Source: Lawsonibacter sp.
GTDB lineage: Bacteria > Bacillota > Clostridia > Oscillospirales > Oscillospiraceae
NCBI GenBank assembly: GCA_050943895.1
Contig: JBMNQA010000008.1
Coordinates: 26,351 to 90,350 of the forward strand
Length of the DNA stretch: 64,000 bases
Direction of reading: 5' to 3'
Shown: positions 2,236 to 6,300 of the stretch, piece by piece
Layout: the number at the start of each line of letters is the position of its first letter
Numbering within the stretch: the stretch's first letter is position 1
The notes under the pieces: generated by a model
What the model was told of the DNA's origin: nothing
Database searches by the model: none
What the model saw: only the letters and a program-made list of their open reading frames with translations
Program-made: the position numbers and the translations under genes

Positions 2236-2473
2236 GTAGGGACCAAGCGAGGATAATTTGAACTACATTGATTCTGGTGGAATGGTGTTCGGATTTATCC
2301 GTTCGATTGAAAATGTCACGAGATGAAAATGGGAGAGGAGTTTCTATTGCACGCTCCCATGTGTTTTATGGAATCGGCCACATGATTATATGGAAGTAAC
2401 AATTAGAAGCGTACAAGTAACAATACTTAAATTATTTTTATGGTATGATTGTGAACGACAAGGAGGCGTTCAT

Positions 2474-3133
2474 GTGGAATTCGGCAAGAAGTTAAAAAAG
2501 ATACGATTAGAGAATGGACTCTCACAGCAGAAGTTGGCAGATAAGATTTTTGTGAGCCGAAGTGCTGTTGCGAAATGGGAGAATGGGTTGGGATTCCCCT
2601 CAGAGGAATCTCTAGAACAATTAGCAAAAAATTTCTGTGTATCAAAAGAATTTTTTGCAACGGAAGAAGCAGAAAAGACAATTATCAATAAAAACCGAAA
2701 GATTTTAAAACTGTCTAGTTCATTATATGCTGCTGTAGCATTGTTTATTGCCATATTTATTTTATATGCATTGTTTCACCCGGTACACTATAGTGTAACA
2801 GCAACCTGTAATGAAATAGAAGTTCAAAAATGGGATGAAAGGCCAATGTCTTTTAAAATCACCGATGAGGAAACGATAGAAGCGCTGATTGATATACTGA
2901 ACAATACGACATTCCAAAAATCCTTGCGTGTAAATGCAGGAGAAGATTATCCGCCATCAACGGAAGCGATCTTGATGTTAAGGGCTGCAAACGGAATGGG
3001 GTGTACGGTTATGTTCTGCTCAACGCCTCAACACGCCTGTGTGTATGTGTCTCATAGTGGTGGAGAACTAGTAGCGGTTAATCCGGAAATTTTGAGTAAT
3101 TATATTGTCCAACTATTGAAAAAAGAAGCCTAG
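2474..3133 (+). CDS. XRE-family HTH regulator with a transmembrane helix and C-terminal extracytoplasmic domain (AT-rich)
   Basis: AGGAGG RBS then GTG 2474. HTH: LSQQKLADKIFVSRSAVAKWENG. Hydrophobic stretch AAVALFIAIFILYALF. Confidence 0.8.
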   Translation: MEFGKKLKKIRLENGLSQQKLADKIFVSRSAVAKWENGLGFPSEESLEQLAKNFCVSKEFFATEEAEKTIINKNRKILKLSSSLYAAVALFIAIFILYALFHPVHYSVTATCNEIEVQKWDERPMSFKITDEETIEALIDILNNTTFQKSLRVNAGEDYPPSTEAILMLRAANGMGCTVMFCSTPQHACVYVSHSGGELVAVNPEILSNYIVQLLKKEA

Positions 3134-3178: not shown

Positions 3179-4501
3179 TTAGGATGAAAAGTCAAGATGC
3201 CGTTTTCTTTGCTGATAGAGCAAACATGCCAGTAAAAATACAAAGACTTCAGTAAGAGGAAAGGCAAGCCAGAGCCCGGTAATGCCCCAAAACGCTGGAA
3301 GTAGGAATGCCAGAGGAATGATAAGCAAGAATCCACGTAGCAGGGAAATCGCATGAGCGGGACGAGGGTATGCAGTAGAGGTAAAATACATAGATAAAAC
3401 AATGTTCCAACCAGCCCATGGGAAGGCGGTAAAATATAGCCGAAGCCCTTTTACTGCAGTGGCCTGTAGAGCGGGATCGCCGCTTTCATTGAATATAGAG
3501 GCAATTGGGCCCGCCCAGATGGATACCAACAGATTGAGCGCAACTGATACAACTCCCACCGTGATCATGGCATAGCGTAAAGCAAATCCAATTCCGGTGG
3601 GAACGCCAGTGCCCCAGTAGCGACTGAGCAGGGGCTGAATCCCCTGTGCAATGCCGGTGAAAATGGCTAGTACCACCAGGGATAAGTTGGCGACCACCCC
3701 GTAGGCTGCTACCCCCAAGCTGCCTTGTAGATATAGCAAGATGAAATTAAAAACAATCATCACTACCCCGGAAGATACCTCTGTGACCAAAGAAGGAATT
3801 CCGGCCCCCGTACATAGCCCCACTAAGGATGGAGAAGGACGGCAAGGAACTGGATAAAAGGTGTTGCGTCGGCGGAGGAAGAAGGGGGACAGAATCCCTA
3901 AGCTGATAAGAGGTGCCAGCCCAGTGGCAAATACTGCGCCAAAGATGCCCAGATTCAATGGGGCCATAAACAAGTAGTCCAGTACGATATTGGATAAACT
4001 GCCGGATACCATAGCAACCATGGCGCGTTGAGGGGCTCCATCGTTGCGCACAAAACAAAGCAGCAGATCATTTAATAAAAAGGCTGGAGAGAAAAAACAC
4101 AGAACTTGAATATAAGTCTGTGTCATAGGTAAGACGGCCCCTTCCGCGCCCAACCAAGTGGCGAGATGTTGAGCGAAGAGCCCGCCGCAGGCAAAAAAAC
4201 ATCCTGCAAATATTGCAGCAATGGTTAAAACATGAGTAAAGACGACACAACTCTCATTCTCTCGGCCCTGATGCTTTAAGATGGAAAAACGGGTAGCCCC
4301 GCCCATTCCCAGCATCAGGCCGGTTCCGTGAATAAAGCTATAAACGGGGATTGCTAAATTCAATGCAGCCAGTCCATCTTGCCCCAAGGCGTTGGCGACA
4401 AAATAGGTGTCGGCCAAAATATAGCAGGAGAGAGCTAACATTCCTAAAACGTTTAAAGTGCAGTATTGGGCAAAATCTCGAAAACAAGTGCGGCGATCCA
4501 A
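3179..4501 (-). CDS. MATE family efflux transporter (MepA-like)
   Basis: ADTYFVANALG..GLAALNLAIP, FVRNDGAP, NIVLDYLF, GIAQGIQPLLS; ~12 TM segments. GGAGG RBS 8-9 nt before TTG. Confidence 0.9.
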   Translation of the reverse strand: MDRRTCFRDFAQYCTLNVLGMLALSCYILADTYFVANALGQDGLAALNLAIPVYSFIHGTGLMLGMGGATRFSILKHQGRENESCVVFTHVLTIAAIFAGCFFACGGLFAQHLATWLGAEGAVLPMTQTYIQVLCFFSPAFLLNDLLLCFVRNDGAPQRAMVAMVSGSLSNIVLDYLFMAPLNLGIFGAVFATGLAPLISLGILSPFFLRRRNTFYPVPCRPSPSLVGLCTGAGIPSLVTEVSSGVVMIVFNFILLYLQGSLGVAAYGVVANLSLVVLAIFTGIAQGIQPLLSRYWGTGVPTGIGFALRYAMITVGVVSVALNLLVSIWAGPIASIFNESGDPALQATAVKGLRLYFTAFPWAGWNIVLSMYFTSTAYPRPAHAISLLRGFLLIIPLAFLLPAFWGITGLWLAFPLTEVFVFLLACLLYQQRKRHLDFSS

Positions 4502-4519
4502 CAGGACATCCCTCCAGAC

Positions 4520-4606
4520 AAAAAGAATGCGCCACAGCTTCCCACCTGCTAGGGCCTACCGGCGGGAAGTTGGGCGCACTGCCCTTCAACCCGGCGGCTG
4601 AAAGGC
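4520..4606 (-). ncRNA. Guanidine-IV (GGAM-1)-type riboswitch in the MATE leader
   Basis: P1 is GCCUUUCAGCC-[GCCG]-GGUUGAAGGGC. It is followed by a long terminator hairpin UGCGCC..ACUUCCCGCC-GG[UAGGC]CC..GGUGGGAAG..GGCGCA-UUCUUUUU. Loop GCC can kiss loop GGC. Lies between a sigmaA promoter and the MATE RBS. Confidence 0.8.
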
Positions 4607-4629
4607 ACAACATTTCTATAATCGGTGGT

Positions 4630-4658
4630 ATCATACGATACTCTACTTCAAAAGTCAA
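4630..4658 (-). promoter_or_regulatory. sigmaA promoter for the riboswitch-MATE transcript
   Basis: TTGACT-N17-TATGAT on the minus strand. Confidence 0.75.
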
Positions 4659-4674
4659 GATGGAAACATAGCAA

Positions 4675-6300
4675 TTATTCCTCTGTTTTCTCTTGTAGTT
4701 CCTTTCTCGTTTTGGCTGCCGCTACAAAATCCCGAAAGAGAGGATGAGCGCGGTTCGGCCGGCTTTTTAATTCTGGATGGAATTGTACTCCAACAAACCA
4801 TGGGTGGTTAGGAAGTTCTACAATTTCTACCAGGCGACCATCTGGAGAAAGACCGGTTAGACAAAGTCCGGCATCGGTGAGGGTTTGGCGGTAAGCATTA
4901 TTGAATTCATAGCGGTGGCGGTGACGCTCCGCAATCTGATTGGTGGCGTAGGCGCGGTAGGTAAAGGTATCATGACTGATAATCTGGCAGGGATAGGAGC
5001 CTAGGCGCATGGTCCCCCCTTTATCGGTTACCTCACGCTGGTCCGGCATCAAATCAATGACCGGATGACGTGTGGTAGGATTCAATTCACTGGAGTGTGC
5101 GTCGGTCAGACCACAAACGTGGCGTGCATATTCAATGACTGCCATCTGCATCCCTAGGCAGATGCCGAAAAAGGGCACCTTGTGTTCTCGTGCATAGCGA
5201 ACAGCACGAATTTTTCCTTCAATGCCACGGTCGCCGAACCCGCCAGGTACTAGAATCCCATGACAGCCTTCTAAAATTTGATCTATATTTTTTTCATGGA
5301 CTGTCTCGGAATCAATCCAACGCACGGTGACCTTCACATCATTTTCAATTCCTCCATGGGTTAGTGCCTCGACTACGGACAAATAGGCGTCATGGAGGGA
5401 GACATATTTGCCAACAAGTCCAATTTCTACTGTCCCATTGGGATTTTTGGCGCGGTGAACCATGGTGGCCCATTCTGTGAGGTCTGGCATGTGGCAGATA
5501 AGTCCCAGCCGGCGTACTACCACGTCCGCTAGACCTGCGCGCTCTAGCATCAAAGGCACCTCATAGAGCAGATCAGCTGTTAGATTGGGGATTGCATTTT
5601 CTCGGGGAATGCCGCAGAACAAAGAAATTTTTTCTAATATTTCGTCGGGAATGGGAGTATCGCTGCGGCAGATAATAACATCTGGTTGGATGCCGAGAGA
5701 GAGCAGTTCCTTTGCGGAATGCTGGGTGGGCTTAGACTTCAATTCTCCGGTGCCAGGTATGGAAACGATAAGGGAGACATGTAAAAACATTACGTTTTGC
5801 CGCCCTCGCTCTGCTGCCACTTGTCGGATAGACTCCAAAAAGGGCTGGGATTCAATGTCGCCTACCGTTCCACCAATTTCCACAATGGCCACATCGGTAT
5901 CCGGAGTATCTAGCGCATAGATGTGAGCCTTGATTTCCTCTGTAATGTGAGGAATAATCTGAACGGTGCCTCCCAAATAATCTCCGCGACGTTCACGATT
6001 TAATACATCCCAATAGACACGACCGGAGGATACGGAGGAGTGGATCGTTAGATTTTCGTCAATAAAGCGTTCGTAGTGGCCTAGATCCAGATCCGTTTCC
6101 GCTCCATCGTCCGTAACAAAAACTTCTCCGTGTTGGTAGGGACTCATGGTGCCCGGATCCACATTTAGATAGGGATCTAATTTTTGAACTTTGATTCGTA
6201 GGCCCCTCTGCTTGAGCAATCGACCTAGCGAGGCGGCGGTAATGCCCTTTCCTAGGCCAGATACTACGCCTCCTGTAACAAAAATGTATTTTGCACCCAT
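4675..6300 (-). CDS. pyrG: CTP synthase
   Basis: [56 protein letters not shown]. Confidence 0.98.

Follow-up and report, generated by a model that had tools for sequence, protein, structure and literature searches.

Between pyrG and a gene for a MATE-family efflux transporter, the window (the whole stretch of Lawsonibacter sp. DNA analysed here, 64,000 nucleotides) carries a leader for which a preliminary description had proposed a guanidine-IV-type riboswitch with altered kissing loops. We asked whether this leader belongs to the guanidine-IV class, whether its loops depart from that class, and what it may sense. Our analysis indicates that the element is very probably a canonical guanidine-IV riboswitch (mepA motif, GGAM-1) acting as a transcriptional ON switch for the MATE exporter; its ligand, the antitermination and the export of guanidine by the pump would follow from membership of the class.

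All features of the leader lie on the minus strand, which the preliminary description had left unstated (Table 1). The promoter, P1, its GCCG loop, the terminator, the U tract and the RBS that it had listed were all found, but P1 comprises 12 pairs, two of these G-U, and not 11. The promoter is putative, a match to 10 of 12 consensus letters in a consensus scan, and transcription is predicted to start near 4623-4622. The P1 tetraloop (GCCG, 4595-4592) and its closing pair (C4596-G4591) read C-GCCG-G in the window, which fits the class loop (G/A)CCG with a closing C-G pair, as published GGAM-1 rows and 35 related leaders do too; a linker of 2 nt leads from P1 to the terminator. Fold and sequence together give a two-hairpin layout of P1, short linker, intrinsic terminator and U tract, and the 126-nt leader has a folding energy of -58.4 kcal/mol (z = -4.49 against shuffles).

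The UAGGC that had been described as the apical loop of the terminator sits within a loop of 14 nt. This loop fits the family pattern nUAGGYCnURGnA of the published rows; its stretch GUAGGCC-C-UAG (4559-4549) satisfies the class letters UAGG(C/U)C-N-U(A/U)G, and the A, G, G and C, like the G further on, show little or no variation in any of the three alignments, namely those of the published rows, the relatives and the leaders of MATE homologues. The small inner pairs drawn by the MFE fold sit within this conserved loop. A simple terminator scan returned 0 sites, which is not evidence against the terminator because the scan's loop limit of 3-8 nt excludes a 14-nt loop.

Table 1. Features of the MATE leader and its neighbouring genes, in window coordinates
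Feature	Position	Strand	Basis or remark
Whole element, as RNA	4607 down to 4518	-	Sequence, fold
Sigma-70-type promoter (putative)	4630..4658	-	-35 TTGACT 4658-4653, 17-nt spacer, -10 TATGAT 4635-4630
P1 hairpin of aptamer	4580..4607	-	MFE and centroid fold; aligns to P1 of model R1
Intrinsic terminator hairpin (expression platform)	4529..4577	-	Fold; about 18 pairs, one bulge, one mismatch
Terminator loop GGUAGGCCCUAGCA, 14 nt, 3' half of split aptamer	4560-4547	-	Fold, family pattern
Kissing-loop pseudoknot (published P2), 5' half: G4595, C4594, C4593	4593..4595	-	Complementary to G4556, G4555, C4554
Pseudoknot, 3' half: G4556, G4555, C4554, inside UAGGCC	4554..4556	-	Leader alignment
G of loop triplet UAG	4549..4549	-	Equivalent of G72 in validated 95 Lla RNA
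U tract UUCUUUUU	4520..4527	-	Sequence; aligns to U tract of R1
RBS GGAGGG	4510..4515	-	Sequence; 8 nt before TTG start codon
MATE-family efflux transporter, 440 aa (presumed regulated gene)	3179..4501	-	Pfam MatE 1.7e-35; TTG start codon at 4501
pyrG (CTP synthase), co-oriented upstream, outside the switch	4675..6300	-	Pfam CTP_synth_N 1.1e-118

To assess membership of the class, we built a covariance model, R1, from nine distinct published GGAM-1 rows with no window sequence included. The rows came from three parts of a Stockholm file headed GGAM-1 in the supplement of Lenkeit et al. 2022 (PMC9788692), and the structure of the model, P1 and the upper terminator stem, was annotated from RNAalifold on the nine-row alignment. 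R1 matched the window end to end at 4605-4518(-) with 44.3 bits and an E-value of 9.3e-10, which is rough since the model has nine rows and a shortened calibration; the runner-up within the 64 kb reached 9.5 bits. The element is thus far beyond chance, because a model from published members finds it at an E-value of about 1e-9. The Stockholm file is described as the Gd4v alignment (PMC9788692, supplementary file 4), whereas its parts used here carry the header 'ID GGAM-1' and guanidine-IV rows, some of them sugE-linked.

Across the 2.28-Mb genome, R1 gave one convincing match, the MATE leader. A second match in the same genome (22.3 bits; locus L002 1501-1575, contig C10, 28394-28468, + strand) was discarded as chance, as it contains neither GCCG nor UAGG and falls within an ORF of 217 aa. 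Searches of the genome for guanidine-I and guanidine-II riboswitches found none, with the positive controls detected; the guanidine-III search also gave no match, and is uninformative because its positive control was likewise silent. The MATE leader is the sole guanidine-type switch found in this genome, which is about 94% complete.

The preliminary description had named a search with the Rfam guanidine-IV model as a check. Using Rfam 15, cmscan gave no match to the element in the window at the gathering threshold, and nothing relevant in 4400-4750 (351 bases) at E<=10. It was equally silent on 20 related-genome loci that carry the element and on the four strongest public loci (56-77 bits with R1), although these 24 comparison loci score 31-77 bits with R1. 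Rfam 15 includes Guanidine-I, -II and -III under those names, and the copy that we used appears to have no guanidine-IV model. Since Rfam was silent on 24 strong members, its negative result reflects the library and is uninformative on the element; membership by covariance model is given instead by the R1 match. Genome scans that depend on this Rfam 15 copy alone miss guanidine-IV elements.

We then examined how the RNA is distributed. R1 found exactly one copy each in 23 of 41 related genomes, the window's own counted, and 12 of the 22 relatives carry theirs immediately before the genome's best homologue of this MATE (33-53% identity). In 8 other relatives a PnuC-like transporter gene (PF04973) follows the element, a class that appears in the published table of associated domains. 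When public genomes were queried with the MATE protein, 12 bacterial homologues with 38-58% identity emerged, from Clostridium sp., Butyribacter, Dorea, Lachnospiraceae, Hominifimenecus, Eubacterium and Christensenella MAGs, and each of the 12 is closely preceded by a same-strand R1 match of 43-77 bits. The nearest MATE homologues come largely from gut-type Clostridia MAGs. These results demonstrate that the RNA is linked to this MATE subfamily in a conserved manner. Together with the R1 match, the same RNA before MATE homologues bears out the earlier proposal of a guanidine-IV-type riboswitch before the MATE gene.

The MATE protein itself had PRK09575 (MATE family efflux transporter) as its top NCBIfam match, at 9.4e-63 and below that model's cut-off, and MATE is one of the gene types associated with the class (MATE/mepA, sugE, B3/B4, PnuC-like and GNAT). 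An HTH_3 (XRE-type) regulator gene at 2390-3133 (+) converges on the 3' end of the MATE gene, with no evident link to the riboswitch. Two relatives carry the riboswitch before small ORFs without a Pfam match (L006 1037-1480 (-), 147 aa; L015 1127-1477 (-), 116 aa), which may be uncharacterised guanidine-related genes. Near the guanidine-IV/PnuC locus of another genome of the same order, a sub-threshold match to Gut-1 RNA (Rfam) was observed at L008 1847-1921 (-), scoring 38.2 bits where the gathering score is 50, and adjoining three tRNA genes.

The alignment of the 23 leaders was used to assess the pairing. Standard pairs filled 98.3% of pair cells, compared with 75% in shuffles and 24-44% with slid partners; changes on both sides occurred in 11 of 16 pairs, and both P1 and the upper terminator stem covary. 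The three loop-loop pairs were added as a pseudoknot afterwards; R1 does not contain them, so they had no part in shaping the alignment. At the first kissing pair, 16 leaders have G-C, 7 have A-U and 0 are broken, in agreement with the covariation that the preliminary description had proposed; the second and third are invariant C-G across the 23. Two MATE-linked leaders keep the kissing pairs through a wobble, L034 (1199-1285) through G.U, with GCC facing GGU, and L036 (1397-1482) through U.G at the second pair, with GUC facing GGC, and these resemble steps on the way from one state, G-C or A-U, to the other. On this sequence evidence, the pseudoknot is well supported. Covariation of the kissing pair has already been reported for the class (PMC7736828), and the clean alternation of G-C and A-U in close relatives fits the pseudoknot as published without adding anything new to it.

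The two versions of the kissing pair were distributed unevenly between downstream genes. The A-U version (ACCG/GGUC) was observed in 6 of 7 PnuC-linked leaders (L003, L004, L007, L008, L011, L012 and L013, located at about 750-1500 on the minus strand of each locus), and the G-C version in all MATE-linked leaders of the same set of relatives. This split probably reflects shared ancestry of leader-gene pairs and not function.

The claim that GCC/GGC in the window replaces a consensus of ACC/GGU did not hold. Counts in the part of the published GGAM-1 alignment that was examined put UAGGCC and CAGGCC together at 169 and UAGGUC at about 92, and likewise CGCCGG at 170 and CACCGG at 54. Judged by this part, GCC/GGC is the commoner of two known covarying states, with no unusual kissing-loop change in the window. 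Both 95 Lla, the validated construct from L. lactis (GUAGGUC), and three Gd4v oligos have the ACCG/GGU state, which probably lies behind the consensus given in the preliminary description.

Compared with guanidine-IV as published (mepA motif, Salvail et al. 2020, bioRxiv 10.1101/2020.10.21.349134; GGAM-1, Lenkeit et al. 2020, PMC7736828), the window shares the RCCG loop of P1, the intrinsic terminator with its loop UAGGYC-N-URG, the U tract, the pseudoknot of three loop-loop pairs with its G-C/A-U covariation at the first of them, the location immediately before a MATE (mepA-like) gene, and the occurrence in Firmicutes/Clostridia. Nothing of substance differs. The minor departures are a G in place of the usual U before UAGG, a C in place of A after the loop UAG, a long P1 of 12 bp and a linker of 2 nt, all within the variation of published rows or relatives; the G before UAGGCC, for example, also occurs in sugE-linked published rows and in the MATE leaders L027 and L030. 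The L. lactis RNA 95 Lla (PMC7736828 supplement) has the same architecture and the equivalents of its conserved G66 and G72 are present in the window, but it is the A-U kissing version (ACCG with GGUC), whereas the window carries the G-C version (GCCG with GGCC).

The closest competing assignment is Gd4v, a gut-enriched motif sometimes found before MATE genes whose ligand is not guanidine (Lenkeit et al. 2022, PMC9788692). An element of that kind would have the same two-hairpin kissing design as the window and a different ligand, and MATE is one of two gene classes common to both motifs, whose boundary the authors call fuzzy. Because MATE genes also follow Gd4v, gene context alone cannot fix the ligand; the typical Gd4v context is mostly a PRK07324 transaminase and never sugE. 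The G before UAGG in the window occurs in two of three Gd4v oligos, but it is found in sugE-linked guanidine-IV rows too. Two features strictly separate the motifs (PMC9788692): D1, which is always G in guanidine-IV, never G in Gd4v, and needed for binding according to the authors' earlier work, and D2, an extra hairpin inserted into the terminator loop of Gd4v. In our alignment, the Gd4v RNAs Csp, Dsu and Mja have an insertion of 12-13 columns that is missing from the window, which has a single C at that site, and from three guanidine-IV RNAs. We mapped D1 by comparing the 95 Lla mutants G62C, G66C, U67A and G72C with the three Gd4v oligos. Among the mutated positions, only G72, the G of the loop triplet that follows GGYC-N, is replaced by another base in every one of the three oligos (C, A and U), so we infer that D1 corresponds to G72 of 95 Lla and to G4549 of the window. 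The window also reads UAGGCC where Gd4v has UAGGUA. By D1 and D2, the sequence places the element in guanidine-IV, and we consider membership of Gd4v highly improbable.

Slightly less improbable, though still very unlikely, is that the fold is that of guanidine-IV while the MATE-linked branch responds preferentially to a substituted guanidine, to a different small cation, or to a small gut metabolite or xenobiotic, which the pump would export in place of free guanidine. What a MATE pump transports is not readable from its sequence, and one class member, the C. botulinum aptamer, does accept methyl-, amino- and ethyl-guanidine, albeit with binding 10- to 100-fold weaker than that of guanidine. 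The window also has UAGCAG where most relatives have UAGAAG, but this position after the loop UAG is variable in published rows, and all invariant or nearly invariant positions of the sampled members are retained. MATE is, moreover, the most frequent gene association of the validated mepA class. A biguanide had been suggested as an inducer; 1,1-dimethylbiguanidine (metformin) did not bind at 10 mM to the C. botulinum aptamer, a representative of the class, and this speaks against that suggestion. The least probable reading, which we regard as nearly negligible, is a plain intrinsic terminator of pyrG beside a chance hairpin with no sensing role. In its favour, pyrG ends (stop at 4675) 17 nt before the -35 box and lacks a separate terminator. 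A plain terminator, however, needs no conserved loop, whereas here both loops and their complementarity are conserved, and the element accompanies the MATE gene across families, whatever the upstream gene.

Under the preferred guanidine-IV assignment, transcription would start about 15 nt before P1, and P1 would fold and present its GCCG loop. As the upper terminator hairpin emerges, its conserved loop (UAGGCC-C-UAG) would pair with the P1 loop through three loop-loop pairs (G4595-C4554, C4594-G4555 and C4593-G4556), and both loops together would make the guanidinium pocket. Guanidinium would stabilise this contact before the base of the terminator zips up. Because the linker is only 2 nt long, the ligand-bound kissed state and the completed GC-rich terminator base would be mutually exclusive, so that RNA polymerase would read through into the MATE gene when the ligand is present. 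When it is absent, the full 18-pair terminator and the U tract would stop transcription at about 4520.

The element thus reads as an ordinary instance of an already published class. The MATE gene can be marked as a probable guanidine-induced exporter, and the importance of the finding beyond this annotation is slight. With no other terminator behind pyrG, the hairpin of the riboswitch probably ends pyrG transcripts as well, and guanidine could also permit read-through from pyrG into the MATE gene.
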